Virus record (IMG/VR): IMGVR_UViG_3300027503_000005
DNA from: a virus
Direction: 5' to 3' (one strand)
Length of the DNA: 13,617 bases
Every line of letters begins with the position of its first letter. Position 1 is the stretch's first letter. This document shows, piece by piece, positions 1-13,617 of the stretch. The translations under genes and the position numbers were made by a program. The notes under the pieces were generated by a model that worked only from the letters and a program-made list of their open reading frames with translations, made no database searches and was not told the origin of the DNA.

Positions 1-127
1 GCATGGGAGACTATGCCGGTCAAGATTGCTTGCTCGACGAAAGCGGCCCAGCCGCGCAGCTCACGGTCGCCAACTACTCGCACAGTGTCGGGCAGATCGT
101 AGGCGGCTCGAGCTGGGAACAGTGGCG
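1..127. repeat. Terminal direct repeat, copy 1 (identical to 13491..13617)
   Basis: Base-by-base comparison: gcatgggagactatgccggtcaag...gctgggaacagtggcg occurs at both window ends with no mismatch. Confidence 0.95.
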
Positions 128-1610
128 GGAGCAGAACAGTTTCGCCGGCGTCGACTCGAGGTTTCAGCTCCGCCCATAGTTCCGGCTCACGTTGGACAGC
201 GTAGGCGGTGACGTGAACGCGGCCGCTGTGTAGATTCCTGGCGGTGACAATAGCGAAGCCGCCTGTGGTTTTGTCTTGCTCGACTGCTGTGACGGTAGGC
301 CTGTTGGTGTCGAAATCTTTGTCGGCTGGTTCCGATTGCAGCTTCGGCCATAAGCCCACAGGCAGCCAGGGGTCGACGAATTGCACCCACTTATTGAGGT
401 GAGCGCGTAGGAACGCTTGCCGGTTAGGTCGCTGGCTTGCCGCCTCGAGCGCAGCTAGTGGAACAGTGCGGCCTAGTCCTGGATTGCCATAGGCCCAGGT
501 TTCGGGCAAATTTTCGTCGGCTTCGTCGGGCGGTGACCATTCAAGGAACAGGTGACTGCCAGCTGTGCCGGCGTCGATGTCAGCAATTCCGCGTTCGCGC
601 CAGGCTCGCATTGCGTGGCTGTTTTCGTCGCCAGCTGTTGAAAACATGGCTACCAGCGGCTCAGGTCGAGCGATGGTAGTGGGCAAGATTCCGTCGTCAA
701 TGACGCTGGCTTTCATGTCCCATATCTCATCGCACAGGAACAGGTCGACGCTTTTACCGTGGATACTGTCCGAAGCTGCTACCGGCTCGAATATCGAGCC
801 GTCAACCAGGGTTAGCCGTTCGCGGCCAGCTCCTCGAGAAACTTTCTCGACAGCGCCTTCGTAGCGTTCCTCGAAAATTCTGACAATGGCAGCCCACTGA
901 TCGACAGCAAGGTTCCGGCTGTTTGCAGCCAGTACCACAGTCTGAGGGCCTTTCTCAGCTGCTCGATGGGTCAACCAGTGGATCGCGAGCAACCTGAGCA
1001 AATAGCTTTTGCCGTTTTGTCGAGCTACCGAAACTAAAGCGGTCCGGACACCTGGGCGCAGCAATCTTTCGGCCGCGTAAATCTGCCAGGGCATTAGCTC
1101 GATGCCGAGGCGTTCAGCTAGCTGTTGGAGGAGGGGGCCATCGGTCGGGCCGCCTGGGTCCGGCGTTGCTAATCGGGGGAGATCATGCCCCATAATTGCA
1201 GGCAGGTCAGCCGCAGCGCTGTTTCGTGCCGTTTCAGGCACCTTTTGGGGTATTTTTTTGAGAGGGTGCGCTGGGGCTTCCAGGGGGTCACTAAAAAAAT
1301 CCGGCGAGGGCTTTGGAATCGGTCGGCTTTTTGGAAGCTGGTTTGGTCGGCCTGTTGTGTCGCTGTGTGGCAGCTTCCGTTTTTTGAGCGCTGCCCCTAA
1401 CCTGGCGCCGTCTTTGCTGTTGCAGGATAGGCAGGCTGGGCGCAGGTTCTCGAGGTCGTCTGTGCCGCCGAGTGCGTGAGCGATGATGTGGTCAACACTT
1501 TCGGCCGGCATACCACAGCGAAAGCATGGGGGCGGGTCCGATAGGGTACCGCCGTAGATCCCATAGACTGCCGCTTTGATTTTTGGGCCGTAGCCTCGAT
1601 TGGTTGCCAT
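1..1610 (-). CDS. HNH endonuclease fused to the large terminase subunit. This is the 5' part of the gene; it runs off base 1 and continues at 13490..13307. Full length is 597 aa.
   Basis: This ORF is missing from the supplied track because it is open at the window edge, so I translated it by hand. It starts at the ATG at 1610..1608: MATNRGYGPKIKAAVYGIYGGTLSDPPPCFRCGMPAESVDHIIAHALGGTDDLENLRPACLSCNSKDG. That segment has CxxC...DH...N...CxxCN, the HNH zinc-finger signature. A basic, Pro-rich linker of about 80 aa follows. The terminase ATPase then shows Walker A (VARQNGKS) and Walker B (VDLFLCDE). The frame is continuous with the 88-aa ORF at 13307..13573, because 1610-83 is divisible by 3. Confidence 0.85.
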   Translation of the reverse strand, partial: MATNRGYGPKIKAAVYGIYGGTLSDPPPCFRCGMPAESVDHIIAHALGGTDDLENLRPACLSCNSKDGARLGAALKKRKLPHSDTTGRPNQLPKSRPIPKPSPDFFSDPLEAPAHPLKKIPQKVPETARNSAAADLPAIMGHDLPRLATPDPGGPTDGPLLQQLAERLGIELMPWQIYAAERLLRPGVRTALVSVARQNGKSYLLRLLAIHWLTHRAAEKGPQTVVLAANSRNLAVDQWAAIVRIFEERYEGAVEKVSRGAGRERLTLVDGSIFEPVAASDSIHGKSVDLFLCDEIWDMKASVIDDGILPTTIARPEPLVAMFSTAGDENSHAMRAWRERGIADIDAGTAGSHLFLEWSPPDEADENLPETWAYGNPGLGRTVPLAALEAASQRPNRQAFLRAHLNKWVQFVDPWLPVGLWPKLQSEPADKDFDTNRPTVTAVEQDKTTGGFAIVTARNLHSGRVHVTAYAVQREPELWAELKPRVDAGETVLLPPLFPARAAYDLPDTVRVVGDRELRGWAAFVEQAILTGIVSH

Positions 1611-1693
1611 TAGTACCCTAGCGCTATGTATGCCACCCACAGGCCGAACAGGATTACCAGGATTAACACTGCGAGGTCGGGTAGGTGTTTCAT
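1610..1693 (-). CDS. 27-aa single-pass membrane peptide (hypothetical)
   Basis: Hand translation gives MKHLPDLAVLILVILFGLWVAYIALGY. Its ATG overlaps the upstream stop (ATGA) and its TAA overlaps the terminase ATG (TAATG). It falls below the size cutoff of the ORF track. Confidence 0.4.
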   Translation of the reverse strand: MKHLPDLAVLILVILFGLWVAYIALGY

Positions 1694-1863
1694 GCGAATA
1701 GATCGTCGGGGTCGGGTTCGTCAGCTGGTTTGATTTTGTCAATGAGTTGATCGCAAGCGATCATGATGTCCTGGACTGCTAGTTCGCTGTTTTCTTTTGC
1801 TGCTCGATGTATGTATGCGGCCACTGTGTAGGCAATGACCTGTTGGGTGTCGGTTAGTTTCAT
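1690..1863 (-). CDS. 57-aa acidic hypothetical protein
   Basis: Hand translation gives MKLTDTQQVIAYTVAAYIHRAAKENSELAVQDIMIACDQLIDKIKPADEPDPDDLFA. There are ATGA overlaps at both ends, and a GAAAGGAAAG Shine-Dalgarno sequence lies upstream. Confidence 0.5.
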   Translation of the reverse strand: MKLTDTQQVIAYTVAAYIHRAAKENSELAVQDIMIACDQLIDKIKPADEPDPDDLFA

Positions 1864-2318
1864 GCTGTAAGCTTTCCTTTCAGTGCTGCTCGCGCTTTTG
1901 CGATGTTTTCGAGGCTGGTTCCTAATGGTTCTTTATTGGTTCGGGTGTCACTGTGACAGGTCGTTTCGGTCACTGTGTCAGGCCGTAGGGTCACTGTGTC
2001 AGTGCGTTCGCTGCGCGGGGTGTCACTCTGACAGGTCGTTTTTTTGTTTGTCATATTGAGCCGGTAACGTTTTGTTTGCCGGTCTTGACGACGGCCGGCC
2101 CAGCCAGCTTGCTCGATAATTCCTTCGTCGAGTAGCTGCTTGATAGCTCGGGTGACTGTTCTCGGGGAAAGTTCAGTCACTCGGGCTATCGTTGCGACAC
2201 TCGGCCAGGCTGCTCGCTCGTCGTCGTTGTATCGGTCAGCCAGGTAAAGCAATACCAGTTTGCAGCTGGGGCTTCCTGTGGTGGTTTCTAATGCCCATGA
2301 AAGCGCTTTGATGCTCAT
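1860..2318 (-). CDS. Winged-helix (HTH_36-like) DNA-binding protein, candidate replication initiator / replisome organiser
   Basis: The N-terminal sequence SWALETTTGSPSCKLVLLYLADRYNDDERAAWPSVATIARVTELSPRTVTRAIKQLLDEGIIEQ fits the pattern of plasmid and phage initiator HTH domains. The C-terminal half is encoded by the iteron array. ATGA overlaps occur at both ends. Confidence 0.7.
   Translation of the reverse strand: MSIKALSWALETTTGSPSCKLVLLYLADRYNDDERAAWPSVATIARVTELSPRTVTRAIKQLLDEGIIEQAGWAGRRQDRQTKRYRLNMTNKKTTCQSDTPRSERTDTVTLRPDTVTETTCHSDTRTNKEPLGTSLENIAKARAALKGKLTA
1944..2041. repeat. Four phased iterons with near-palindromic core GTCACTGTGWCAG, a candidate replication origin
   Basis: Cores lie at 1947..1959 (gtcactgtgacag), 1969..1981 (gtcactgtgtcag), 1990..2002 (gtcactgtgtcag) and 2022..2034 (gtcactctgacag). 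Start-to-start spacing is 22, 21 and 32 bp. The outer copies share a 23-mer, ggtgtcactStgacaggtcgttt (1944..1966 and 2019..2041). A T-rich tract (T7 at 2039..2045, tttttttgtttgtcatattga) abuts the array. Confidence 0.75.
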
Positions 2319-2830
2319 AGCAGCCCTAGCTTTCTTGCACAGCCAGGCCAGGCTTTCCAGCCGCTGCGCTCGAGAACGCGTTCAGCGATAGCAATTTGCT
2401 GTTCGCGTGATGCTTCCCAGGGGTGCAGCGCATAGTCGAGGCCGCCGAAAGCTCGCCAGGTTGACCAGCTGGTACCGTGCGCGAATTGCAGGCCGCCGCC
2501 GTAGCCGTTGCCAGTGTTGAGATCCCAGCGGCCTGATGATTCGCACCAGGCAAGCTGATCCCATACTGAGGCGTCAGCTGTGAGCTGTGTGAGCTTTGTC
2601 GCTGTGGGGCGTGGCAGCGTTGTGGTGGTGGTGGTGGCGTTGGCTAGCCATTCGTCGAGCTGGCGCCAGGCTTCGGCTGTGGCTTGCTCGTCGACTGTGG
2701 TAGCTGTTGAGCTGCTGGTTGCGCTGTTGCTTCGATAGTTTGGTTGGCTGCCGTATGTGAACATGATTAGCAATAGCAGGCCGATAAAGCCGGCGACAAT
2801 GATGAGGCCGGTGAGCTGTTTTTTGGTCAT
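2315..2830 (-). CDS. Membrane-anchored Rpf-like (resuscitation-promoting factor) transglycosylase
   Basis: An N-terminal TM segment (LTGLIIVAGFIGLLLLIMFTY) is followed by a Ser/Thr-rich linker containing T6. The C-terminal sequence is WDQLAWCESSGRWDLNTGNGYGGGLQFAHGTSWSTWRAFGG...ASREQQIAIAERVLERSGWKAWPGCARKLGLL. This matches the Rpf domain of Micrococcus and Mycobacterium Rpf proteins, including the catalytic Glu in CES and both conserved Cys residues. Confidence 0.85.
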   Translation of the reverse strand: MTKKQLTGLIIVAGFIGLLLLIMFTYGSQPNYRSNSATSSSTATTVDEQATAEAWRQLDEWLANATTTTTTLPRPTATKLTQLTADASVWDQLAWCESSGRWDLNTGNGYGGGLQFAHGTSWSTWRAFGGLDYALHPWEASREQQIAIAERVLERSGWKAWPGCARKLGLL

Positions 2831-3393
2831 TGTTTCGGCTCGCTTCCGGAAGGCCAGCCGAGATCGCCTGGGGCTGTGACGCCTGTTTTGTCGCGTCGGG
2901 CTTGTGTCGCTAATTCGAGAAGCTCGACGAGTTCGCTGGTGGTCAGTGTTTCCGGTTCGCCGGCGTCAACGTAAATTTGAGCGGCTAGGTCTTTATCGTC
3001 AAGGCAAGCTTTCAGCAGCCTGTTTTTGATGACTGCTTTTTTGACGGTGTCGGCGAATTGTTGCCGGCCGGCTATTTCGTCGGCTGACGCTACTGATTTC
3101 GACACCTCGATGCCGGCCAAAGCAAGCGCTCGGCCGACTGCGCTGGTTTCGGCGTTCATTGCTTCGCTGTCGCGTGTGTAGGGCGTTTTGCCTGGGTAGG
3201 GTTCCCAGGCTGTTGCCGTGAAGCCTTCGCTGTGTGGCTGTTTGTAGACCGTGGCGCGTGATTCGATAAAGCAACGGTCGCCGAGCTGTTTAACCTCGGG
3301 CGGTTCTGTCGTTATGACGCCTTCAGGGTACCGCTCGTAAAATCGCACGATGCGGACATTGACGGGGACGTAATCTTTCATGAAATCGCTCAC
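2827..3393 (-). CDS. Hypothetical early protein, possibly a Rad52/Sak-like single-strand annealing or ssDNA-binding protein
   Basis: This is a 188-aa ORF. The segment SEAMNAETSAVGRALALAGIEVS resembles the A-x-[ST]-x-A-x-[GK]-R-A-x(3)-G-I motif of Rad52-type phage annealases. The start may be the GTG at 3393 (GTGA overlap) or the ATG at 3381. The function is tentative. Confidence 0.4.
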   Translation of the reverse strand: MSDFMKDYVPVNVRIVRFYERYPEGVITTEPPEVKQLGDRCFIESRATVYKQPHSEGFTATAWEPYPGKTPYTRDSEAMNAETSAVGRALALAGIEVSKSVASADEIAGRQQFADTVKKAVIKNRLLKACLDDKDLAAQIYVDAGEPETLTTSELVELLELATQARRDKTGVTAPGDLGWPSGSEPKQ

Positions 3394-3527
3394 AGCTCAC
3401 CTGCCAGGGTGATGGCGGCCCATACTGTTGCCGCTGCTGTCCAAAGCCATGAGAACAGGCTAGGCGCTGTTTGTATTGCTACTGCTGCGCTGCCTGTTAC
3501 CAGTAGCGCCGTTGTTGTTTTCCTCAT
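3390..3527 (-). CDS. 45-aa membrane/secreted peptide (hypothetical)
   Basis: Hand translation gives MRKTTTALLVTGSAAVAIQTAPSLFSWLWTAAATVWAAITLAGEL. It is preceded by AGAAAGGTTAAAG, the same 18-bp initiation cassette found at 4060..4077. Confidence 0.5.
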   Translation of the reverse strand: MRKTTTALLVTGSAAVAIQTAPSLFSWLWTAAATVWAAITLAGEL

Positions 3528-3538
3528 CTTTAACCTTT

Positions 3539-3841
3539 CTACCGTTTTGCGATCCACACCTGCGCTCGAGCGCCGGTGTCTGTTGTGACATAGCCAGGGG
3601 CTTGCTCGACTAGGCCGGCGTTTTGTAGTTCCTGCCGGCGTTTTGCTACTGAGCCTCGCAAAGCTCCAAGCCTGTTTGCTATTTCGTAGTCAGCTAGCGG
3701 GACTGCGGAAGCTTTCAGCACGTCGAGAACGCGCATAGCTAGAGTGGCTCGCTGCCGTTTGTTTGCATATGCGGCCGCCTGGCTGGTTTCGGGGTCGGTT
3801 AGGCGTGCCGGTGATTGGAATAGGTTCAGCTGTTCGCTCAT
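3539..3841 (-). CDS. Small winged-helix (MarR-like) DNA-binding protein
   Basis: This is a 100-aa ORF. The segment DPETSQAAAY...RVLDVLKASAVPLADYEIANRLGALRGSVAKRRQELQNAGLVEQ...ARAQVWIAKR follows a typical wHTH pattern. An ATGA overlap joins it to the upstream ORF. Confidence 0.7.
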   Translation of the reverse strand: MSEQLNLFQSPARLTDPETSQAAAYANKRQRATLAMRVLDVLKASAVPLADYEIANRLGALRGSVAKRRQELQNAGLVEQAPGYVTTDTGARAQVWIAKR

Positions 3842-3999
3842 TGTTGCCTACTTTGTAGCGCGATCATGAGCGCTAAAAGCTCGGCTGCTTCGGCCAGCTC
3901 ATCGCGCTCGATGTATGTGAGCAAATTCCACTTCGCTTGCAGGTAAGCCGTGCGGAATGTTTCGGCGAGTAGCTCATCGGCAAAATCGTGATCGCTCAT
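3838..3999 (-). CDS. 53-aa helical hypothetical protein
   Basis: Hand translation gives MSDHDFADELLAETFRTAYLQAKWNLLTYIERDELAEAAELLALMIALQSRQQ. There are ATGA overlaps at both ends. Confidence 0.5.
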   Translation of the reverse strand: MSDHDFADELLAETFRTAYLQAKWNLLTYIERDELAEAAELLALMIALQSRQQ

Positions 4000-4064
4000 G
4001 GCTTGCCTCGCAAATTGTGGTTGCAGCTGTTTGGGCGCAGCTGTGCGCCTGTTTTCTCGCTCAT
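3996..4064 (-). CDS. 22-aa leader-like micro-ORF
   Basis: The sequence is MSEKTGAQLRPNSCNHNLRGKP. It is the first ORF after the promoter-like site. It has a strong SD (AGAAAGGTTAAAGATG) and its stop overlaps the next ATG. It may serve only for translational coupling. Confidence 0.3.
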   Translation of the reverse strand: MSEKTGAQLRPNSCNHNLRGKP

Positions 4065-4104
4065 CTTTAACCTTTCTTAGTGCGCCGATGGTGGCACAGT
4101 CGCG

Positions 4105-4133
4105 ACGTTATTGTGTCGGCTTGCCTGTGTCAA
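4105..4133 (-). promoter_or_regulatory. SigA/sigma70-like promoter candidate for the early operon
   Basis: The minus strand reads TTGACA (4133..4128), then 17 nt, then TAACGT (4110..4105), which fits TANNNT. It lies at the edge of the second-largest non-coding gap (4065..4107), and the -10 element overlaps the TAA stop of the upstream gene. Confidence 0.4.
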
Positions 4134-4320
4134 TGGTTAGCTGCTGAAAGCTGGAAGGCGTGCGGCTGGGCATGATTGCGCCGCCGATAGCGCCGGCAGC
4201 TGTTCCGGCGATTGCCCACAGTGCGCTAGCGTCGGTTCCAGCTGAAGCGACTACAGCGCCAGCGATCAGGGCAGCTAACGCGATGGCTGCGAGTGCGAGT
4301 GTTTGGACAGTGTTATTCAT
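4108..4320 (-). CDS. Holin-like membrane protein with two Ala/Gly-rich TM segments
   Basis: This 70-aa ORF reads TLALAAIALAALIAGAVVASAG...LWAIAGTAAGAIGGAIM. It lies two genes downstream of the endolysin, at the end of the lysis cassette. Confidence 0.55.
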   Translation of the reverse strand: MNNTVQTLALAAIALAALIAGAVVASAGTDASALWAIAGTAAGAIGGAIMPSRTPSSFQQLTIDTGKPTQ

Positions 4321-4522
4321 AGCGGCCGCTTTCGTGGTCCTGAAGGTGTCGGTCGAGTTTGTTCGATATTTTTTTGAGCTGGCGGGTCTGCTTGTCGAGT
4401 TTGCGGCTGTTGTCGCGGTGTTCCTGTGTGTTGAGGTTTCTAGTCTTGCGGGATTGCCAAACTATGCCGGCGAAGGCGAAAAGGCCGCTGACGGCCGCAG
4501 CTGCGACGGGCGCCCATTCCAC
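4313..4522 (-). CDS. Holin-like protein with one N-terminal TM segment and a highly charged C-terminus
   Basis: This 69-aa ORF uses a GTG start located 3 nt after the endolysin stop. It has the TM segment APVAAAAVSGLFAFAGIVW, followed by the charged tail RKTRNLNTQEHRDNSRKLDKQTRQLKK. Confidence 0.55.
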   Translation of the reverse strand: MEWAPVAAAAVSGLFAFAGIVWQSRKTRNLNTQEHRDNSRKLDKQTRQLKKISNKLDRHLQDHESGRYE

Positions 4523-4525
4523 TGG

Positions 4526-5191
4526 TCAGATTTTGCCTTCATTGCGGGGCAGGACTGCTAAAGCGTCGAGCCAGGTGGCGGGCGCTGGGCTGATTACCTG
4601 CACGCCGAGAAATTCGAGCGCCTGGACCTGTGACCAGTCTGTAAGCGCCACTTTGCTGTTTCCGGCAGCGTGGTAGGCGCGTGGCGGGTTGAAACGATGA
4701 TCTACTAGGATTACTGATTTCATGTCGTCTGTCTCCGGTTGTGGTGGGGTTGAATATGCGGGGCGGCCGAGGCTTACTGCTTCGGGGTAGTACCGGCGAA
4801 AGATTCCGACCTTGTCGCCGACGTTGCCTTCGATTGTTGTGAGGCTGTCGCCGTTATTCGATAGGACAATGCCGACGTGGTCGAGGGCGCCTACGTTGTC
4901 CCACTCGAAGAAAACGACGTCGCCAGGTTGAGCTTCGCGGCTGTTGCTAATTAGTCGGCCCTGATTGGCGAACCATAAGGCGCCGGCATCGCACCAGGCG
5001 AAGCCTTTATCTGTTTGCGCTGGTAAAGGTAGGCCGGCATCGTAGAAAACGCGGCTGACCCACATAGCGCACCAGGGGCCGCGTATGCCGTACCAGTCGG
5101 TGATGCCTGGCACGTTGTTAGAACCTGGCGGCTGTTCTGATACTCGAGACCAGGCGGCCGCTGATGCGAAAACGTCGCTAGCTGTTGTCAT
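4526..5191 (-). CDS. Endolysin with an N-terminal CHAP cysteine peptidase domain and an uncharacterised C-terminal domain
   Basis: The catalytic Cys context GPWCAMWVSRV, the His context ALDHVGIV and the TIEGN motif are the CHAP / NlpC-P60-like signature. The roughly 70 aa after the PPQPE linker are of unknown type. Confidence 0.85.
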   Translation of the reverse strand: MTTASDVFASAAAWSRVSEQPPGSNNVPGITDWYGIRGPWCAMWVSRVFYDAGLPLPAQTDKGFAWCDAGALWFANQGRLISNSREAQPGDVVFFEWDNVGALDHVGIVLSNNGDSLTTIEGNVGDKVGIFRRYYPEAVSLGRPAYSTPPQPETDDMKSVILVDHRFNPPRAYHAAGNSKVALTDWSQVQALEFLGVQVISPAPATWLDALAVLPRNEGKI

Positions 5192-5324
5192 CGGTGGCGC
5201 TCCTGGTGTACGAAGCGAAAGCTGCCAGGATTTCGATCAGCTCGTCGCTGCCGTAGTCGAAAGGGGTGTCGAGCGGGATCAGCCCTTCGGCGTCGGGGTC
5301 GGGTAGTTCGTCGGGTTGCGTCAT
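5178..5324 (-). CDS. 48-aa acidic hypothetical protein
   Basis: I trimmed the 63-aa track ORF to the ATG at 5324, which overlaps the upstream stop as ATGA. The product is MTQPDELPDPDAEGLIPLDTPFDYGSDELIEILAAFASYTRSATDDNS. Confidence 0.5.
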   Translation of the reverse strand: MTQPDELPDPDAEGLIPLDTPFDYGSDELIEILAAFASYTRSATDDNS

Positions 5325-5980
5325 GCTGCTGGCGGTGTTGGTGTTTGCGGTCCCATGTCTTCTACCCATATCGCGCAGTCACTGATGACTAGGCGATTCG
5401 CAAAGCCTGTTGAGCGTTGGGTCACTGCTCGAAATGTTTGCGATCCTGTAGCCGCAAAGTGGATTACGAATTCGAGTGTGGCCGATTGAGGTTTGCTGAT
5501 TTCGATCCAGTTTTGCGCTCGCGCTCGAGTGGTTCCCGAACCGTTGTCGACTGCGATTTGTGCGTTGCCGCTTCCGTCTGTCGCGATAGTCGGGCAGGTG
5601 AACGTGCACTTGTAAAGGCGGTTAGCCAGGGCGTTGATGGTGATTGAGCCGTTTGTTACCGCGACGTCACTACCTGCCGGCGTTGAATAATCTACCGAAA
5701 GGGTGTGGCGCCATGAGAGGCCGTTTGTGCCGCCTGATGTCGCCGCGACCAGTCCCCAGGGGCGAGACCAGGGCGGGCGCCAGCCTGTAGTTGCGCCGTA
5801 GTAGACCTCGAGGCTGCCGGTGTCGAGTAAATAGGAAAAGGTGCCTACGACGGGCGAAACGATTGCTGCTGAGCGTGCCGCCGAGTTTGCGAATTGTGGA
5901 ACGCTGTTGTCGCGCAGGTAGGTGTTGAAATTGGCAGCTGTTACTTCCTCGAGAGCTGCCCAGGTTTTGTATCCGCCCAT
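5321..5980 (-). CDS. Minor tail protein / tail fibre (probable receptor-binding protein)
   Basis: The N-terminal sequence KTWAALEEVTAANFNTYLRDNSVPQFANSAARSAAIVSPVVGTFSYLLDTGSLEVYYG...W matches the conserved N-terminus of actinobacteriophage minor tail/fibre proteins. A strong AAGGAG SD is present. It is the last gene of the tail module. Confidence 0.7.
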   Translation of the reverse strand: MGGYKTWAALEEVTAANFNTYLRDNSVPQFANSAARSAAIVSPVVGTFSYLLDTGSLEVYYGATTGWRPPWSRPWGLVAATSGGTNGLSWRHTLSVDYSTPAGSDVAVTNGSITINALANRLYKCTFTCPTIATDGSGNAQIAVDNGSGTTRARAQNWIEISKPQSATLEFVIHFAATGSQTFRAVTQRSTGFANRLVISDCAIWVEDMGPQTPTPPAA

Positions 5981-5991
5981 GATTTTGCTCC

Positions 5992-7251: not shown

Positions 7252-7253
7252 CG

Positions 7254-8891
7254 TCAGCTATTCCAGGGGAAACGGCCGTTGCGCTGATAGTAGTCATCGA
7301 GCTGGTCGACAATGGCACTGCCGACGTCATATCCGTTAACGCCTGGCGGAATAGTCGCGTTGATAGTCACATTGACTGGCTGGATCAGGCCGGTGCCGAA
7401 TCCGTTGGGGATAATTTGGCCGGCCTGGTTAGGTACGAAAAGCTCAGGGCCTTGCTCGCCGACGACGTAGGCCTTATTTGTGAACACTGAGCCGCCTAAA
7501 GCTCGAAAGCCGCCGAAAATATTCTCGAAAGTACCGCCGAGGAAGCCGCCGGCGCCGCCGAGCAGGTTTCTGATAAAGCGCAAAGCTCCGGCGATGGCGT
7601 CGCGTAGGCCGCCGATTAGTGTTTCCTCGACGAAGCTGATGATGCCGTCAGCTATTGCTTTGCCGATTGAGCGGGCAAGGCTAAAGGCTGGCAGGACTAA
7701 ATCGGCGACAGTTACGGGATTGCTGAAAATTCGGCCGAAAGCTGAAGGCAAGGTACCGGCAATGTATCGAATTACGCCGTCAATGAAGCCGCCGACGAAA
7801 GCTTCGGCTACGTTGCTGCCTGATTTGTTTAAGCTCTGTACGTTTTTGCCGTCGGTGCTTGCGCTGTCAATCGCTCCGACTACCTGGGTGAAGCGCTCGA
7901 AAATTGACGGGATACCGTTTTCAGGGTCGCCGTAAATAACTTTGAGCAGCCATTCGCTTGCCCTCGCTGACCATTCGCGAAAATCAGGCACGTTTTTGTT
8001 GACCCAGTCGGCTACTAATGTGCGCAGGCCATTGAGATCGCCGCCCCAGGTTTCTGCAAGCCTGGACCATACGCCGCTGATGCCGCTTTCGCTGAAGCGT
8101 TCTACAATGGTTGACGCGACGCCTACCAGGTCTTGAAAGATTGGCAGCAATTTTTCGCCGATTGCGATTTGTAGGTTATCTAGTTGCGCTCGCAGTACCT
8201 GGCTTTTGTTGCCTAGCTGGTCCTGTTCGCGTGCGAAAGCTCCGGTGGCTGTGGCGCTTTGTTCCTGTAATGCTGCCAGGGTTCCGATGATGTTTTGCTG
8301 TGTTGTGAGCGTTCCGTTGACTTCCTCGCCTGTTTTGCGAAAGTAGGCGGCCTTGACGCTTGCATCGTTGAGCAGGATTCCGAAGCGCTCGATGGGGTCG
8401 CGTTCGCCTCGAAAAGCTGAGCCGATGGCGTTGATCGCGTCCTCGACGGGGATATCGGCGAAGGCGCCTAGATCGGCTGCGAGCTTTGTGAGTTCTGTGG
8501 AAAAGTTGGCCGCCTCGCGGCCGTTGAGTCCTAAAAAGCGGGCATAAACAGCAAAGCGGTTAGTGGCGTTGATTGCTGCTAGTTCTGATAGGCCTAAGCC
8601 TTTGGCGGCTTGCTCGGCCCACTTTTGCAGCTCGCCGGCAGCGCCGCCATAGTTTTGCTGAAGGGTACCGAGGGCAGCTGACAGGTTCGCTGCTTTGCCT
8701 ACGCCGTCAGCCAGGGCGCTCGCGGCTGCTGTGGCACCTTGCGCGAGTTTGTCGATAGCAAAGGTGGTGACTGCGCTTGATACGCCGGCAGCGAAGCCGG
8801 CGACCTTCGCGCTGAAGCCGTCAAGCTCGTCGCGAGCTTTCCTACTGTCAGCGACGATGTCAACTTTGAGCCGCGCGGGTGTTCCTGCCAT
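7254..8891 (-). CDS. Tail tape measure protein (545 aa)
   Basis: The sequence is Ala/Gly-rich and helical. The core GLSELAAINATNRFAVYARFLGLNGREAANFSTELTKLAADLGAF is typical of the tape-measure family. The C-terminal glycine-rich region and the VGEQGPELFVPNQAGQIIP motif are also typical. The position before the minor tail genes fits as well. Confidence 0.9.
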   Translation of the reverse strand: MAGTPARLKVDIVADSRKARDELDGFSAKVAGFAAGVSSAVTTFAIDKLAQGATAAASALADGVGKAANLSAALGTLQQNYGGAAGELQKWAEQAAKGLGLSELAAINATNRFAVYARFLGLNGREAANFSTELTKLAADLGAFADIPVEDAINAIGSAFRGERDPIERFGILLNDASVKAAYFRKTGEEVNGTLTTQQNIIGTLAALQEQSATATGAFAREQDQLGNKSQVLRAQLDNLQIAIGEKLLPIFQDLVGVASTIVERFSESGISGVWSRLAETWGGDLNGLRTLVADWVNKNVPDFREWSARASEWLLKVIYGDPENGIPSIFERFTQVVGAIDSASTDGKNVQSLNKSGSNVAEAFVGGFIDGVIRYIAGTLPSAFGRIFSNPVTVADLVLPAFSLARSIGKAIADGIISFVEETLIGGLRDAIAGALRFIRNLLGGAGGFLGGTFENIFGGFRALGGSVFTNKAYVVGEQGPELFVPNQAGQIIPNGFGTGLIQPVNVTINATIPPGVNGYDVGSAIVDQLDDYYQRNGRFPWNS

Positions 8892-9385
8892 TAGCTTGCC
8901 TTGTTAGTTTCGGGGCCGATAGCGTCGATGATTTCGTTGATGCCTCGGCTGTAGATCGCTACCCATGTCGGCTCGAGCTGCCGGCCTGTGTCAACGATCC
9001 AGGGGTTAGGTGCAATAAAGAATTGCCTGTCGATTTTGCCGCGTATTTGTTTGGGTAGTTTTTGGGAGCTGCCAGGCCACCCCCAGTGGATAGCGCCGGC
9101 GTAGGGGACTGCTCGACCTACGCCTAGCTCGGCTAGTACCGCTCCGGTGCCAGCTCCTCGCACGTTGGCGCCTACTGTGACGCTGGCGCGTGTCCTGGTG
9201 GCGCTTGGCTTGTGAGCGAAAGCGAGTTTGCCTGTTTTGCGGGGTGCGTTGCGGGCCGCTGCTGTCGTTACCAGTGTCGCGATTGTTTGGTTGAGGTCTT
9301 TCAGGTCAGCTAGTTCGCCGTTGGCTTTTTTGATTGCCTGGCGTAGCTGTGAAGCTCCCTCGACTTTTAACAGCGGCCCAGCCAT
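8891..9385 (-). CDS. HK97 gp10-like head-tail/neck family protein (164 aa), sitting in the slot normally held by tail assembly chaperones
   Basis: I trimmed the 225-aa track ORF to the ATG at 9385, because the 61-aa extension is Arg-rich out-of-frame-looking sequence that overlaps the upstream gene. KVEGASQLRQAIKK...AARNAPRKTGKLA...ASVTVGAN...VPYAGAIHWGWP...RQFFIAPNPW follows the gp10-family pattern. A TAATG overlap joins it to the tape measure gene. Confidence 0.55.
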   Translation of the reverse strand: MAGPLLKVEGASQLRQAIKKANGELADLKDLNQTIATLVTTAAARNAPRKTGKLAFAHKPSATRTRASVTVGANVRGAGTGAVLAELGVGRAVPYAGAIHWGWPGSSQKLPKQIRGKIDRQFFIAPNPWIVDTGRQLEPTWVAIYSRGINEIIDAIGPETNKAS

Positions 9386-9387
9386 CG

Positions 9388-9768
9388 CTAGGCCTTCGTG
9401 ATCGTTCCCTCGACGGGGAGCGAAAGCGAAAAGCTGAGCGGGTCGCCAGCTGCGCCGCCTGCCGGTGGTTTGCGGCCTGCGACTTCGCAGGTGAAGGTCA
9501 CGCCGTTGATATCCATGACAGCGGTGAGCGTTGAGCCTGACGTTGAGGCGGTCCACAGCAGATCGCAAAGGCTGTCAACTTCGCCGAAATCCTGGTAGCC
9601 CTCGATTGCGAGCGCGTAGGTTTCCTGGTTGGCGGTGTAGGTGCCGCAGAACGTGCGAACCTGTGTTTCGCTGTTGCTGGTTTCGAGGCGGGCGTTTGAG
9701 AGCTGGCATTCATAGTCGACAGCCTCGAGCGACAAGGTGAGCGTCGAGATTAGTACGGGGGCGGGCAT
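9388..9768 (-). CDS. Candidate major tail protein (126 aa)
   Basis: The call rests on position (after the terminator-like gene and before the tape measure), a beta-rich sequence, and a good SD (CAGGAGACTGAAACCATG). I recognised no diagnostic motif. Confidence 0.45.
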   Translation of the reverse strand: MPAPVLISTLTLSLEAVDYECQLSNARLETSNSETQVRTFCGTYTANQETYALAIEGYQDFGEVDSLCDLLWTASTSGSTLTAVMDINGVTFTCEVAGRKPPAGGAAGDPLSFSLSLPVEGTITKA

Positions 9769-9772
9769 GGTT

Positions 9773-10153
9773 TCAGTCTCCTGTTGGGATTTTGACGGGG
9801 TAAGGGATTGTTAGACCTACTGCGAACACATTGGCGTCGCCGTAGCGGGCGGGTCCGATGTTGATTTCCTGGGCGAGCGGGCCGGCCCAGGCGATCAGTG
9901 TTTCGAGGTCGGTTTCTAGGTTTTCTACTGATGTCGGGTCAGCTGTTTGAGCTGCTGACATGACAGCGATTTTCAGGTTGTAGTTGTAGCGGGTATGGCC
10001 GCTGATGCTCACTGGTTGTATTTCGTCGGGGGCGACGATCACGCAAGGCACGATTGGAGCGCCTGGCGGGTACCAGCGGTACACCTTGTAGCTGGGGTAG
10101 AGCTGTTCCAGCTCGAGGGCTACCGCTTCGCGGGCGTCAGCGAAAACAGTCAC
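9773..10153 (-). CDS. Tail terminator / tail completion-like protein (126 aa)
   Basis: FADAREAVALELEQLYPSYKVYRWYPPGAPIVPCVIV resembles the conserved N-terminal pattern of actinophage tail terminators (FPDAe.vv..L......v....P....lP.v.v). It uses a GTG start in a GTGA overlap. Confidence 0.5.
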   Translation of the reverse strand: MTVFADAREAVALELEQLYPSYKVYRWYPPGAPIVPCVIVAPDEIQPVSISGHTRYNYNLKIAVMSAAQTADPTSVENLETDLETLIAWAGPLAQEINIGPARYGDANVFAVGLTIPYPVKIPTGD

Positions 10154-10497
10154 GAAACTAGGCCTGACGTCGAAAGCCAGGGCGCTAACAGCACGCCGTA
10201 GCGCCGTATCAGCACAGTGTTGACAGTGGCCGGCACGTTTTCGATCCAGTTGACCTGCAAGGTGCCGTCGATTCCGACGCCGGCTTTGTAAAGCTCCGAA
10301 GCGATAAACAGCGCAGCGGTTACTACAGCGTCAGGCACAGCGTCGAGCGGTTCGCCTTCGCTGTCCTCGAGTGTTACCAGGCCAGCTATGGCTTCGGTCG
10401 CTGTCATTACAATGCGGTCGCCTACTGTGGCGTCAATAGGGGCGCCAAGCTGCTGCTCGAGCTGTTCTACTGTGATCCAGGGGTAGGCGAGTGACAT
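10150..10497 (-). CDS. Head-to-tail adaptor (gp6-like connector)
   Basis: It is the first gene after the capsid gene. WITVEQLEQQLG...ATEAIAGLV...VVTAALFIASELYKA fits the gp6-like head-tail connector pattern. Confidence 0.55.
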   Translation of the reverse strand: MSLAYPWITVEQLEQQLGAPIDATVGDRIVMTATEAIAGLVTLEDSEGEPLDAVPDAVVTAALFIASELYKAGVGIDGTLQVNWIENVPATVNTVLIRRYGVLLAPWLSTSGLVS

Positions 10498-10518
10498 GGG
10501 TCAGCTTTCGTAATAGTT

Positions 10519-10553
10519 CGCCGCGCCAGGCGATGAGTGGACCTGGCGCGGCG
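10519..10553 (-). terminator. GC-rich stem-loop downstream of the capsid gene (attenuator or mRNA-stabilising hairpin; weak as an intrinsic terminator)
   Basis: The stem is a perfect 12-bp pairing of cgccgcgccagg (10519..10530) with cctggcgcggcg (10542..10553) around an 11-nt loop. It sits in the largest non-coding gap (10498..10560). On the transcribed minus strand it is followed by AACTATTA, which is not a clean U-tract. Confidence 0.45.
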
Positions 10554-10560
10554 AGATTTT

Positions 10561-12057
10561 CTAGGACAGGTCGCAGTAAGCGAAGGCGCCAGGGTATCCC
10601 ACTGACAAAGCGCCGTAGCCGTACACTCCGAGGTCGATTCCGAGGATCGAAACGTCGACTGCGCGGATTTCGACTGGTTGACCTGCGCGTTCCCACCAGG
10701 TAGCGCCGAGGCTTGAGCCTAATAAAGCATGGCCGGCCGGAAGGTCGCGCTCGAGGTAGACAGTGAGGCCGTCTGCGCTCATGGTCGGGGTCATGCTGCC
10801 GAATTGTACGCGGCCGTCCCAGAAAGCTGGGCGGTCCGAATCAGCCAGGCTGATCCAGGCGGGCAATAAATCGGGAGCGATAGCCAGGAAAAGCGGGCCT
10901 GGCGGGGTTGCTGAAAAATCGAGGGCGCCGATCAAGCCGCTGACGATGTCGACTGGTGACGATGAGCCTACTGTTGTCGCTCCGCCTGCTGCTGTAATGA
11001 GGCCGGACACTGCCGCGGCGTTTGTTTTTTGGCCGAAGCTTACCGAAAGCGCCTCGAGGATAGCTGCGACAGCTGAGGGGTCGGAACGGTCGACTGCTTG
11101 AATCGAAAGTTCGTTAGCGCCGGCGAAGGTGCGAACGGATACTTCCTCGAGGGTGATCGAGGCGTCATCGCTGTTGACTTCGTCGAATTCGTCAACCTGC
11201 TCGTCAACGGTGGGCTTGTTGTCCCAGGCGGGGTAAGTGACCTTCATGCCGGAAGCGGGCAAAGCGCGGTTGGCGATGGCGTTGATGGTTGGGCGGCCTG
11301 GGTTGATGAGGCCGACGATTTCGCCGACGTAGGCAGGCGGGACAATGCCGGCGAGGTCGGTGGTGGTTGATTGTGAAAGCGCAGCGCGTACTTCAGCGAC
11401 GGATAAATCGCCTTTATTTGCTGACGCGATGAGCGACGCGACGCCGGCCAGGTCGAGGCTTTTGGCCGCTGGGCGGGTCGAGTGCGGGATTGGGGCAGCT
11501 GCGACGATTGTCGGCTCGGCTGCTGCTTCTACTGCTTCGGGTTCTTGCATTGGTTCGGGTTCCTGTTCTGTTTGGGGTTCCGGTTGGGGTTCAGTGTTGG
11601 TATTTTCTGACGCTGCTACTGCCATAGCTCGAGCATCGTCGAAAGCTGGAAGCGCTACCTGGCTTACTTCGCGCAGCTGGCTGGCTGCTACTTCTAAAGC
11701 TTCGGCGCTGTGTTCGTAGTCGATTAGGTCGACTCCGACGCTGAGGCCGTCGCGTAGTTTCTCGGCTGCTTCTAACAGTGCCAGGTCGCCGGCTGGTGTT
11801 TCAGGCACTCGAAAACGGCCGTAGAGTCCTGCTTCGTCTTGCCAGGCTTCCTCGAGGTAGCCGAGTGGAGCTTCGGCCTGGTGATCGCGCAGCAATTTGA
11901 CGCGGTCGAGCTGTTCAGGCAGTTGGACACTGCCAGGAGCGAAGCGGGTAGGGCCGGCGCTGGTGTTACCGATGACGCCGAACGGGACTAGCCGGCCGAC
12001 GATAGAACGTCGCTCGAGGTCGGCTGCTGTGATGCTGTAGCTGGCTTGAATTTTCAT
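10561..12057 (-). CDS. Prohead (HK97-type S78) protease fused to an HK97-fold major capsid protein (498 aa)
   Basis: The N-terminal ~150 aa carry LLRDHQAEAPLGYLEE and DGLSVGVDL, the His and Ser contexts of HK97-family prohead proteases. An acidic Pro/Glu linker (TEPQPEPQTEQEPEPMQEPEAVEAAAEP) follows. The remaining ~300 aa are capsid-like. The gene lies directly after the portal gene. Confidence 0.85.
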   Translation of the reverse strand: MKIQASYSITAADLERRSIVGRLVPFGVIGNTSAGPTRFAPGSVQLPEQLDRVKLLRDHQAEAPLGYLEEAWQDEAGLYGRFRVPETPAGDLALLEAAEKLRDGLSVGVDLIDYEHSAEALEVAASQLREVSQVALPAFDDARAMAVAASENTNTEPQPEPQTEQEPEPMQEPEAVEAAAEPTIVAAAPIPHSTRPAAKSLDLAGVASLIASANKGDLSVAEVRAALSQSTTTDLAGIVPPAYVGEIVGLINPGRPTINAIANRALPASGMKVTYPAWDNKPTVDEQVDEFDEVNSDDASITLEEVSVRTFAGANELSIQAVDRSDPSAVAAILEALSVSFGQKTNAAAVSGLITAAGGATTVGSSSPVDIVSGLIGALDFSATPPGPLFLAIAPDLLPAWISLADSDRPAFWDGRVQFGSMTPTMSADGLTVYLERDLPAGHALLGSSLGATWWERAGQPVEIRAVDVSILGIDLGVYGYGALSVGYPGAFAYCDLS

Positions 12058-12064
12058 AGTTTCC

Positions 12065-13150
12065 CTAAAGTGGTGGCAGGTTTTCTAGTTGGCGTACTTC
12101 TGCAATAGTTAAAAAGCCGGCTTCGAGCGCTTGAGCGTATGCCTGGTAACGGCCGGCGGTGTCGCTTCGCAGGTAATCGTCGAGAGCGAACCGGACTCGG
12201 TGGCCGCGTGGTGTCACGTCGCTCATGCTGAGGCGGCTTTCGATTGCGACCAGGTAGGGCCGAAGCGTTGTGTCTACCAGGTCGCGCCGTTGCCCCTCGG
12301 TAGTGGCATAGGTGAGGCTTGAATTTGTCGGGGCGTTGAGGTAGCGGGTCGGTACGTTGAGATGACGTGCAATTTCCGCAACCTGGTGATCGCGTGAGGG
12401 AATTAGCGCGATTTGTTCAGCGTCGAATTGTTGACGCTCATAACGGAAGCGTCGATTCAGGTAGCCGGTGGTGCGCTTACGTCGGCCTGTTTCCCAGGAT
12501 TGGAGCAGCTCGCTTACTTTGTTCGCTGAAAGCTCGGGGCCGTCATCGTAGATAATGCCGGTGGGTAGATCGGTGGAGGCGATGCGGGCAGCGGCCGCCT
12601 CGAACAGTAACGCTGTGCGGATAGTGCGGCCGGCGATCTCGAGCAGGCCAGGCCAGTGAGCTGCGATAGCTATGACGTCTTTTGCTGGCAGCAATATGTC
12701 GCCAGTGTTGGGCAGGCCGCTGATGCGGTACCTGGCCTGACTCGAGTCGGGTGGCGTGACGTTTTCGTAAGGCACATAGCGGACATGAGCAGGGTATCCG
12801 TCTGAATAGCGGCTAATGACTACCAGGTAAGCGGTCGGAAATAGAACTAAATCCTCGACTACTTTGGTCACTGTCGTCGATGTCGGCTCGAGCGGGTCGA
12901 GCTGCTCGATCAGTCCGTTGGGTACGCTTTCGAGCGCAGCGTTGTATCGGCGCAGCGGAAAGGTTCCTACTGTGCCGGCTATTACCTGTAGGCCTTGCGC
13001 TACCGCCGGTACTTTCCAGGCGCTATCGCGTGATAGCGCAATGTCTGAAATATCGGGCAGCGATATGGGGGCGAGGTTCGCCATCGTCGCGGTCGATAAA
13101 TACGGGACACTAGCTTCAATTTGTTTTGGTCGGCGTGTGAATAGGCCCAC
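12065..13150 (-). CDS. Portal protein (HK97 portal family, 361 aa)
   Basis: It lies between the terminase and the protease-capsid gene. The segment DHQVAEIARHLNVPTRYLNAP...LTYATTEGQRRDLVDTTLRPYLVAIESRLS matches the conserved portal core (eIar.f.vP..ll). The start is uncertain: GTG at 13150 or the internal ATG at codon 23. Confidence 0.8.
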   Translation of the reverse strand: MGLFTRRPKQIEASVPYLSTATMANLAPISLPDISDIALSRDSAWKVPAVAQGLQVIAGTVGTFPLRRYNAALESVPNGLIEQLDPLEPTSTTVTKVVEDLVLFPTAYLVVISRYSDGYPAHVRYVPYENVTPPDSSQARYRISGLPNTGDILLPAKDVIAIAAHWPGLLEIAGRTIRTALLFEAAAARIASTDLPTGIIYDDGPELSANKVSELLQSWETGRRKRTTGYLNRRFRYERQQFDAEQIALIPSRDHQVAEIARHLNVPTRYLNAPTNSSLTYATTEGQRRDLVDTTLRPYLVAIESRLSMSDVTPRGHRVRFALDDYLRSDTAGRYQAYAQALEAGFLTIAEVRQLENLPPL

Positions 13151-13164
13151 GCGCCTAGTCTAGC

Positions 13165-13296
13165 TCATTCGTCAACGGGAAGCGGTGACGGTAATACTGT
13201 GCGAGCTTGCTCGAGCTTTGCTGCTAGCTGAGCTGACGTAGCTGCGACGAAAAGGCCAACGATGAACGCTGCGACGATGCTGAGAGCTGTTTTCAT
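13165..13296 (-). CDS. 43-aa single-pass membrane peptide between the terminase and portal genes
   Basis: Hand translation gives MKTALSIVAAFIVGLFVAATSAQLAAKLEQARTVLPSPLPVDE. The ATG lies 10 nt after the terminase stop. Confidence 0.45.
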   Translation of the reverse strand: MKTALSIVAAFIVGLFVAATSAQLAAKLEQARTVLPSPLPVDE

Positions 13297-13306
13297 GGCC
13301 GGCACT

Positions 13307-13617
13307 CTATCCGAAAGCGATTACTGGAGCGGGCGCCGGTTTTTGCAGCTTTGTAGCTTCAGCAACAGCCCACACCATCGCTCGAACAGCGTGGACACTC
13401 GCACCAGGTACCGCCGTACCGATCGCTAGGCCGCCGTCTCGCACTCTCGAGGTAGTGCGGCCAAGCTGCTCAGCTAGTTGTACGTCACCAGCATGGGAGA
13501 CTATGCCGGTCAAGATTGCTTGCTCGACGAAAGCGGCCCAGCCGCGCAGCTCACGGTCGCCAACTACTCGCACAGTGTCGGGCAGATCGTAGGCGGCTCG
13601 AGCTGGGAACAGTGGCG
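13307..13617 (-). CDS. Large terminase subunit, 3' end (the C-terminal nuclease-domain region of the gene listed at 1..1610)
   Basis: The frame is open to the window edge and identical in sequence and frame to 1..127. The stop TAG is at 13309..13307. The track shows only the internal-Met fragment 13307..13573. Confidence 0.8.
   Translation of the reverse strand, partial: PLFPARAAYDLPDTVRVVGDRELRGWAAFVEQAILTGIVSHAGDVQLAEQLGRTTSRVRDGGLAIGTAVPGASVHAVRAMVWAVAEATKLQKPAPAPVIAFG
13491..13617. repeat. Terminal direct repeat, copy 2 (identical to 1..127)
   Basis: Exact 127/127 identity with the window start. Confidence 0.95.

Follow-up and report, generated by a model that had tools for sequence, protein, structure and literature searches.

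The 13,617-nucleotide window analysed here, which is the whole of IMG/VR virus record IMGVR_UViG_3300027503_000005, holds one complete phage genome of 13,490 bp in which an HNH endonuclease domain and the large terminase (TerL) are encoded by a single open reading frame (ORF) that runs across the predicted cohesive end site (cos). The 22 genes serve packaging, head, tail, lysis and replication, and all real genes are located on the minus strand; that they share one strand had been stated in the original prediction, a model's reading of the letters. Functions were assigned by hidden Markov model (HMM) searches against PHROGs and Pfam. These searches confirmed the genes listed in that prediction, which were terminase, portal, protease-capsid, a 545-aa tape measure, endolysin, holin-like genes and a replication block. 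Genes were counted with conservative start codons, the same ones as picked by public gene callers, which leaves 388 nt non-coding (97.1% coding) and yields seven stop/start overlaps of 1 or 4 nt, besides single overlaps of 8 and 14 nt. The lower figure of about 170 nt non-coding and the eleven 1- or 4-nt overlaps given earlier are obtained only with the longest possible ORFs. Scans of the genome found no tRNA genes and no Rfam matches, and a scan for sigma-70 promoters and terminators gave background level only. As no polymerase, helicase, primase or integrase was detectable in HMM searches of the window proteins, replication must use host enzymes. No partition gene is present in the window.

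Window bases 1–127 are identical to bases 13491–13617, no longer prefix being equal to a suffix, and the minus-strand terminase ORF, which runs from 1742 to 1, resumes in frame from 13490 to 13307. Both observations had been made correctly from the letters, and the unique unit is therefore 13,490 bp long; its G+C content is 57.7%. Three contigs of exactly 13,617 bp, including the window, come from different samples and are different rotations of one circle. The other two, Joint Genome Institute (JGI) contigs from samples 3300028073 and 3300024502, have their 127-bp overlaps at window positions 10518–10644 and 3484–3610, respectively. Because contigs of the same length put the overlap at other rotations, the repeat at 1..127 (no strand) is what a cyclic assembly graph leaves behind at k=127, not a biological terminal repeat, as had been suspected. 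A SPAdes contig from ENA of 14,053 bp (L003; related contigs and genomes are referred to by such L numbers) wraps the circle with a 563-bp imperfect overlap, and a 13,499-bp contig spans the entire unit. All rotated and wrapping contigs read through the 13490/1 junction of the window. L003 differs from the window at 40 positions, all of them at 6421–6874 inside the tail gene g10, and is otherwise 100% identical; these differences are strain microdiversity in a tail protein, which accounts for the assembly break of L003. The genome recurs with 100% identity in many samples. Identical capsid, portal and initiator proteins are indexed in 35–55 assembly blocks, none of which contains a contig above 20 kb bearing window genes, and no contig with the window sequence embedded in host DNA or joined to it was found in the indexed assemblies. 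The genome is complete and is independently supported by the rotated contigs from other samples. The proposal of a self-closing, complete tape-measure phage genome thus held up, both on these 13,617-bp rotations and on the wrapping assembly.

The gene for the packaging protein is interrupted by the window ends. Its 5' part (1..1610, minus strand, ATG at 1610) and its 3' end (13307..13490, minus strand) are connected by in-frame continuation over a junction that independent contigs cross, and together encode 597 aa with matches to phrog_9 TerL (E=1.7e-41) and to the HNH family PF01844 (E=8e-10). This HNH domain at the start of the ORF had been overlooked in the original prediction. It comprises residues 23–84 of 597 (1359..1544, minus strand), is matched by PF14279 and many HNH PHROGs as well, and is followed by a basic, proline-rich linker and then by the ATPase and nuclease domains of TerL. 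Across the linker, stop codons are missing from frame 0 and number one and five in the other two frames. The fusion frame is open in L013, L029, L033, L035, L036 and L038 despite a diverged protein sequence of the linker, and full-length matches to the fusion reach down to 32% identity. Both domains were aligned in one stretch in 28 among the best 150 representatives (clusters at 50% identity). Judged by this conservation, the HNH-terminase fusion is not an accident of one sequence. A separately initiated TerL appears unlikely, since the internal methionine 140 is not conserved in L033. TerL products of 430 aa in JGI annotations were considered as proof of separate HNH and TerL genes and were rejected; the frame is open upstream in all those contigs, so that the shorter products are start choices of the gene caller.

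No small terminase was matched by PHROG and Pfam models among the window proteins, except for the HNH part of phrog_4581, and no ORF is located between cos and the ATPase domain of TerL. Homology to TerL begins 17 codons after cos, which leaves no room for a small gene ahead of the terminase. The earlier statement that the genome lacks a recognisable small terminase, tail assembly chaperone pair, polymerase and integrase agrees with the HMM searches, in which none of these was detectable. In the 79-nt gap upstream of the start of the HNH-terminase gene there is a tandem direct repeat, GTTAATCCTG-GTAATCCTG, at 1649–1667 (minus strand), which may be a regulator binding site for the late genes.

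The predicted cos site lies at 1253..1299 on the minus strand and consists of a run of seven T (1299–1293), the motif AGTGAC (1292–1287), a GC-rich core and a run of seven A (1259–1253). The predicted 3' overhang, CCCAGCGCACCC, is located at 1275–1264, the coding strand reading GGATTTTTTTAGTGACCCCCTGGAAGC/CCCAGCGCACCC/TCTCAAAAAAATACC with the predicted overhang set off by slashes. Within a stretch of 21 nt here lie seven contig ends, which belong to six contigs assembled by three pipelines from samples that possibly overlap; L004 and L026 stop at 1276, and L007, L008 and L028 start at 1263. End-polishing of a 12-nt 3' overhang at 1275–1264 would give precisely these stops and starts, which points to a linear virion genome. 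No sequence variation was seen at 1263–1284 in any contig compared. Strain variation as the cause of the pile-up of ends at 1263–1284 was rejected as there are no variants there, whereas L003 breaks in the real variable patch of g10. In an alignment of five lineages the site forms a nucleotide-conserved island in a divergent linker (AAGCCCCAGCGCACCC, AAGCCCCGACGCACCC, TAGTCCCGGCGCCCCC and AAGCCCCGGCGCCCCC). The island aligns with the termini of phages Kels and Decurro, which have the T run, AGTGAC, CTGGA and the GC-rich end in common with it; the Kels genome ends with ...GTTTTTTCAGTGACGGCGCCCAGGACATCCCGCGCCCAC and begins with CCGACCTTTTTTCCCC, and that of Decurro ends with ...GTTTTTTAAGTAGGGGCGGCTCTGGACACCCCGCGCCACC. 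Both belong to cluster AN, whose phages are siphoviral in morphology and have genomes with published 3' cohesive ends of 11 bases (PMC5513430, Table 1). The homologous site and the contig-end pile-up together predict an overhang of 11–12 nt next to the HNH domain. Going by contig ends and homology, the virion DNA is probably linear, 13,490 bp long, with 11–12-nt 3' cohesive ends at 1275–1264, and probably not the circular or permuted virion molecule that had been entertained. As the predicted overhang covers codons 112–116 of the terminase, the terminase gene would be split between the two ends of the virion genome. Two IMG/VR contigs from different samples, L010 and L022, start at the same base, CTCGAGCTCATGCC, within the terminase gene, with the conserved cos-like island of their clade lying about 200 nt upstream of this shared start.

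The replication block contains g21 (1860..2318, minus strand), a predicted lambda O-like initiator of 152 aa with an HTH_36 domain (phrog_1032, E=2e-28; PF13730). It is 37% identical to gp21 of Kels and 37–38% identical to the proteins of Kels and Curtobacterium phage Penoan, and has no match in Rhodococcus phage RRH1. Inside codons 94–125 of g21 are four 19-nt iterons (ACGRCCTGWCACAGTGACM; repeat family D4; 1946..2039, minus strand) with a spacing of 21–32 nt and an internal dyad (TGTCACAGTGACA-like), which form the predicted origin. In having an N-terminal winged-helix initiator and four dyad-containing 19-nt iterons within its own gene this arrangement resembles lambda O and ori-lambda; it differs in that the window has no recognisable gene for a P-like helicase loader and that the initiator has only 152 aa.

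Megablast with the entire unit as query found no nucleotide match among 50,697 phage records. The capsid fusion protein found 238 phage records, all below 60% identity, the best of them being Penoan (15.3 kb), Arthrobacter Decurrovirus (14.8–15.6 kb), Microbacterium cluster EE, Gordonia phages and RRH1. TerL, portal, protease-capsid, g08 and tape measure are 25–31% identical to their counterparts in Kels, Penoan and RRH1, and all named phage relatives infect Actinomycetota. RRH1 and cluster EE had originally been named for comparison; the Arthrobacter phages of cluster AN (14.8–15.6 kb), which had been missed there, are more closely related. The threshold for clustering in PhagesDB is 35% shared gene content, and a genus of the International Committee on Taxonomy of Viruses corresponds to about 70% genome-wide nucleotide identity. 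At E<=1e-3, Kels has matches for six of the 22 window proteins (27%), with 26–37% identity. Since 27% shared genes is less than 35%, which was taken as a significant level also in a study of small phages (bioRxiv 10.1101/2022.02.05.479200), the window phage is on gene content not a Decurrovirus or member of cluster AN.

The window and cluster AN (Decurro, 15,524 bp; Kels, 14,830 bp) have their genes in the same order between terminase and lysis, and both possess a protease-capsid fusion, a major tail protein of small size, homologous g08 proteins, the tape measure, the O-like initiator, an HNH next to cos and a homologous cos with a GC-rich 11–12-nt 3' end. In cluster AN, however, HNH and terminase are separate genes flanking cos, and one to three small genes precede the terminase, whereas the window has one ORF across cos. 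The window lacks Kels gp10, the gene that separates the g08 homologue from the tape measure, and carries an Rpf gene, and the lysin is of another type. RRH1 resembles the window in layout, in the fused capsid-protease and in an HNH at the right end, with 25–30% identity in TerL, portal, capsid, g08 and tape measure; it differs in that one of the small genes ahead of its terminase is annotated as a small terminase, that the endolysin gene lies between those for portal and capsid, and that two small genes precede the tape measure. As in cluster AN, HNH and terminase are separate genes, placed at the right and the left end of the genome, respectively. HNH-assisted cos packaging of the HK97 type, in which HK97 gp74 acts with the terminase, was reportedly described by Kala et al. 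in 2014. Like HK97, the window encodes an HNH next to terminase and cos, an HK97-fold capsid, a portal and an S78 protease; in HK97 the HNH, small and large terminases are three proteins, while in the window the HNH is fused to TerL and a small terminase was not found.

A tail assembly chaperone is usually encoded in the slot that follows the g08 homologue and precedes the tape measure. The window genes for g08 and the tape measure overlap by a single nucleotide, and the lineage is without the gene of about 100–120 aa which is held between the two by Kels (gp10), Decurro (gp12), Penoan and RRH1 (Orf12). PHROG and Pfam scans of the window proteins gave no match for a tail assembly chaperone.

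Small-genome actinobacteriophages have been defined by a size below 20 kb (bioRxiv 10.1101/2022.02.05.479200). As in clusters AN, EE, CW and DM and in RRH1, the window genome is below 20 kb and combines a protease-scaffold-capsid fusion, a common feature of small siphoviruses of actinobacteria (PMC7302621), with a siphoviral tail module including a tape measure. RRH1 with 14,270 bp was named in two papers as the smallest siphovirus or entry of the Actinobacteriophage database, and the smallest cultured tailed phages are podoviruses of 11.6 kb (PMC7762592). The window unit is 780 bp (5%) shorter than RRH1, so that the size claimed for it, at or below the smallest siphoviruses, is correct with respect to cultured phages (13,490 versus 14,270 bp). 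The implied novelty was overstated. Kavagutti et al. 2019 (PMC6802176) had already described a peak of small genomes in freshwater with 155 miniphages below 15 kb and a minimum of 13.5 kb, although a gene-by-gene description of the window lineage was not found in that paper. Being a complete metagenome-assembled phage genome below 15 kb that occurs in several samples, the window unit is by size and assembly a miniphage of this kind. Its overall design, with protease-capsid fusion, HNH, tape measure and O-like initiator, is that of known small-genome actinobacteriophages (PMC7302621), and a GenBank record of an uncultured Caudovirales phage, LR796843.1 (14,046 bp), has an HNH-TerL fusion and the same order of core genes, with 61–72% amino-acid identity in TerL, portal, capsid, g05, g06 and g07. 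The closest relative is L033, with 73% identity in TerL and the same gene order including the Rpf gene. Units in this clade measure 13,490 bp (window), about 13.85 kb (L033), 14,046 bp (L029/LR796843.1) and 14,230 bp (L035). The window is marginally the smallest unit seen in the clade and equals the published metagenomic minimum. The earlier interpretation was thus right on the identity of the sequence and on its size below every cultured siphovirus, and went too far on novelty, as both the kind of phage and the minimum size had been published.

The LR796843-like genomes differ from the window by an amidase lysin, an HTH_3 gene and a dif-like phage attachment site (attP); the window has no attP and is 556 bp shorter than LR796843.1. 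One relative in this sister clade, L042 (60% TerL identity to the window), is located inside a 29.5-kb contig of 65–70% G+C and is flanked by host genes, the proteins of which resemble Acidimicrobiales metagenome-assembled genomes (MAGs). A 17-bp direct repeat, TCCTCGTTATGTAAAGT, flanks the element, the copies starting 14,951 bp apart (sites 6283–6310 and 21234–21261), and the left junction reads CTTGCCGATAA-TCCTCG-TTATGTAAAGT, a 28-bp dif-like site. In related host strains (L045–L047) the empty site is a single GTTGCCGATAATCCTCGTTATGTAAAGT between the same two genes, and one contig of the strain to which the lysogen itself belongs breaks off precisely at the dif-like site. The site matches the dif predicted for the actinobacterium Frankia alni, CACGCCGATAATGCACATTATGTCAAGT (PMC3025954), at 19 of the 22 arm positions. 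No integrase is encoded between the L042 repeats. A neighbouring host gene of 382/386 aa was considered as the L042 integrase and rejected, being outside the repeats, present at the empty site and without a Pfam match. All complete free LR796843-like genomes carry GGGGCGGCCTACCT-TCCTCG-TTATGTAA(AGT/GGT/ACC) with the matching 17-mer between the lysis genes and the HTH_3 gene, at positions 3825 in L013, 10598 in L022, 10735 in L010, 1331 in L032, 4730 in L029, 11826 in L030 and 1921 in L035. The free genomes of the clade measure 14.0–14.2 kb and the L042 prophage about 15 kb.

This looks like Xer-type integration by a tailed phage, as known from integrative mobile elements exploiting Xer (IMEX), and insertion would presumably use the XerC/D recombinases of the host. 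In the literature this lifestyle was found only for filamentous and tailless phages. A dif-like attP without an integrase, by which an IMEX is recognised, occurs in the sister clade and not in the window. In the window and in L033 the motif is absent with up to 3 mismatches allowed, and the adjacent HTH_3 gene is absent too, wherefore the window phage is regarded as lytic.

Taken together, the window is very probably the complete genome of a lytic, cos-packaging miniphage of siphovirus type, which presumably infects a freshwater actinobacterium and is distantly related to Decurrovirus, RRH1 and Penoan. According to this scheme a single HNH-large terminase polypeptide would cut cos, and as the terminase gene spans cos, only circularised or concatemeric DNA would contain it in one piece. 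Once the DNA is injected, its ends would anneal and then be ligated, the O-like initiator g21 would bind the four iterons in its own gene, and host enzymes would replicate the genome. The fused protease-scaffold-capsid protein would build a small head of T=3 or T=4, the 545-aa tape measure would set a tail of about 80 nm, and the CHAP endolysin with two holin-like proteins would lyse the cell.

Several points weigh against this scheme. L004 and L006, which possibly come from one library, have contig starts at 1284, which would fit a 9-nt terminal duplication instead, and the termini as a whole are deduced from contig ends and homology. The absence of small terminase and chaperone means that no match was detectable and is not proof of absence. 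The siphovirus type is predicted from the genes, and an actinobacterial host is indicated only by the Rpf domain, the actinophage relatives and the sister-clade prophage in Acidimicrobiia. The assignment of g07 as probable major tail protein comes from a weak HMM match and gene position, and an AlphaFold2 model of g10 from a 7-sequence alignment (pLDDT, the predicted local distance difference test, 38.6) was unusable.

Headful packaging would yield circularly permuted, terminally redundant virion DNA with no fixed ends. It would explain why assemblers close the circle at arbitrary rotations and why neither a small terminase nor a cos-binding protein can be recognised; cos phages, however, also assemble as circles, and the clustering of contig ends within 21 nt in several assemblies, the HNH beside the terminase, a hallmark of HK97-type cos packaging, and the alignment of the site with the defined cos of cluster AN phages make this mode unlikely. 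The window phage might also be temperate like its sister clade and persist as prophage or plasmid. A relative with 60% TerL identity is integrated at the dif-like site of an Acidimicrobiia contig, and the window itself encodes the DNA-binding proteins g17 and g21. But the attP-like motif (<=3 mismatches) and the HTH_3 gene, which every complete sister-clade genome has, are missing from window and L033, and there is neither an integrase nor a partition gene nor a contig that joins host DNA, so that we regard temperate persistence as quite improbable. A still more doubtful idea is a satellite, a defective phage or a cluster resembling gene transfer agents that needs a helper. Its own terminase, portal, capsid, tail and lysis genes and an initiator with origin speak against such dependence, as do the 100%-identical genome in many samples, never within a larger contig, and the autonomy of the cultured RRH1 and cluster AN phages with nearly the same gene set (PMC5513430), even if small terminase and tail assembly chaperone gave no HMM match, a polymerase is lacking and the genome is the smallest of its clade. 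Gene transfer agents, which are chromosomal head-tail clusters lacking replication and lysis genes of their own, differ further from the window, which has an initiator with iterons, an endolysin and holin-like genes and was never found in host DNA.

A broader and tentative reading, somewhat less likely than not to hold, is that the lineage shows to what extent a long-tailed phage can be reduced by fusion of functions and by borrowing from the host. One HNH-TerL protein would package the DNA, its gene being cut at cos for each virion and rebuilt on circularisation, without small terminase or chaperone, and the sister clade would be a tailed-phage IMEX inserting at a 28-bp dif-like site of Acidimicrobiia. 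New to us are the HNH-TerL fusion spanning cos, the loss of the genes at the positions of small terminase and chaperone, and the integrase-free integration of the sister clade at a dif-like site. The miniphage kind, the genome size and the protease-capsid fusion are already known, and the window is a further example with unusual packaging genes. The record size by itself adds little, the genome being 5% smaller than that of RRH1 and matching the published minimum of metagenomic miniphages. With 22 genes on 13,490 bp and 97% coding the window does provide a clean reference genome near the lower size limit of a self-sufficient long-tailed phage, in the size range where capsid models predict a still-unobserved T=3 head of a tailed phage (PMC7762592), and it is a naturally occurring case for testing if cos can be recognised and cut by an HNH-large terminase fusion unaided by a small terminase. 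Freshwater assemblies seem to contain the window phage and its sister clade commonly, and Actinobacteria have been described as being among the dominant groups in freshwater (PMC6802176); the distinction between lytic and dif-integrating lifestyles therefore matters for the microbial ecology of lakes.

The remaining genes, all on the minus strand, follow from packaging to replication. Between terminase and portal is a 43-aa membrane-type ORF (13165..13296) with a transmembrane-like segment, which the original prediction had passed over; it is contained in public annotations and is 66% identical in L033. At its position L033, LR796843-like genomes, Kels (gp3) and Decurro (gp5) have a gene of 44–66 aa. 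The portal protein (12065..13084; PF04860, E=6.6e-37; phrog_12) precedes the 498-aa fusion of prohead protease, scaffold and major capsid protein (10561..12057; phrog_2263, E=1.2e-79), in which Peptidase_S78 covers residues 49–151 and Phage_capsid_4 residues 227–483 and which shares 28–32% identity with the corresponding fusions in Kels, Penoan and RRH1. The next two genes are named by position, as neither has an HMM match. These are g05 (10150..10497), a probable head-tail adaptor in the slot of Kels gp6 with 61–70% identity in relatives, and g06 (9773..10153), a head-tail connector-type protein conserved in relatives. The probable major tail protein g07 (126 aa; 9388..9768; phrog_4574, E=4.9e-6) occupies the major tail slot of Kels, Decurro and RRH1. 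It is followed by g08 (164 aa; 8891..9385; phrog_5, E=6.7e-7; PF04883 in homologues), an HK97 gp10-like tail completion or neck protein with 26–31% identity to Kels gp9 and its counterparts in Penoan and RRH1, and by the 545-aa tape measure protein (7254..8891), matched by 17 tape-measure PHROGs with a best E value of 7e-16.

Directly after the tape measure is g10 (5992..7251), a minor tail or baseplate protein of 419 aa with 38–69% identity in relatives and the variable patch at 6421–6874; diversification of this patch (450 nt) probably reflects a host-recognition surface. PDB sequence and profile searches with g10, g08, g07 and g19 gave nothing significant, and PHROG and Pfam scans of the homologues of g10, g19, g05, g06 and g11 gave no functional names. 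The first 78 residues of g11 (5321..5980; phrog_16452) align with L033 at 78% identity, and its C-terminal two thirds are replaced. As a kept N-terminus with a swapped C-terminus is usual for such modular proteins, g11 is probably the receptor-binding tail protein. A 48-aa ORF, g12 (5178..5324), is called publicly and is 62% identical in L033.

The endolysin (4526..5191) is a CHAP / NlpC-P60 peptidase (PF05257, E=1.9e-11; phrog_21357, E=7e-27). It is followed by g14 and g15 (4108..4522), two holin-like small membrane proteins with transmembrane-like segments that are conserved in L033, LR796843 and L013. Public callers place ORFs on the opposite strand at 4283–4561 (plus strand, 92 aa) over g14/g15 and at about 3406–3582 (plus strand, 58 aa) over g18. 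The former is an artefact, because the minus-strand g14/g15 proteins are conserved in those three relatives; the minus-strand call of g18 is backed only by an ORF of 47 aa called on the same strand at the corresponding place in L033.

The largest intergenic region (3996..4107) contains repeat D14 and, on translation, a 22-aa micro-ORF (4064–3996). A 28-nt repeat (3996–4077 and 3513–3540) copies the ribosome-binding site and start codon of g18, which creates this micro-ORF. Its stop overlaps the start of g16 (ATGA), and L033 has a 107-aa gene there; the micro-ORF may be a deletion remnant. The small early genes g16, g17 and g18 (3390..3999) come next, g17 being a winged-helix DNA-binding protein (phrog_1123, phrog_2440). 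Both g16 and g17 are conserved in L033, while g18 is contained in public annotations and has no tblastn match. The conserved early protein g19 (2827..3381; phrog_23738, E=2e-32) has no Pfam or PDB match. The product of g20 (2315..2830) has an N-terminal transmembrane segment, by which it would be anchored to the membrane, and an Rpf-type transglycosylase domain (PF06737, E=4.9e-28). Its gene is situated among the early and replication genes rather than in the tail or lysis modules and is also found in L033 and in prophage L042, with no Rpf match in LR796843.1. The protein might act in entry, in lysis or in waking dormant hosts. A scan of genome contigs with it, aimed at the host, found two Actinomycetota MAGs only, at 42–43% identity, and was uninformative. 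Between the initiator gene and the gap ahead of the HNH-terminase gene is g22 (1690..1863), a 57-aa ORF that is 69% identical in L033.

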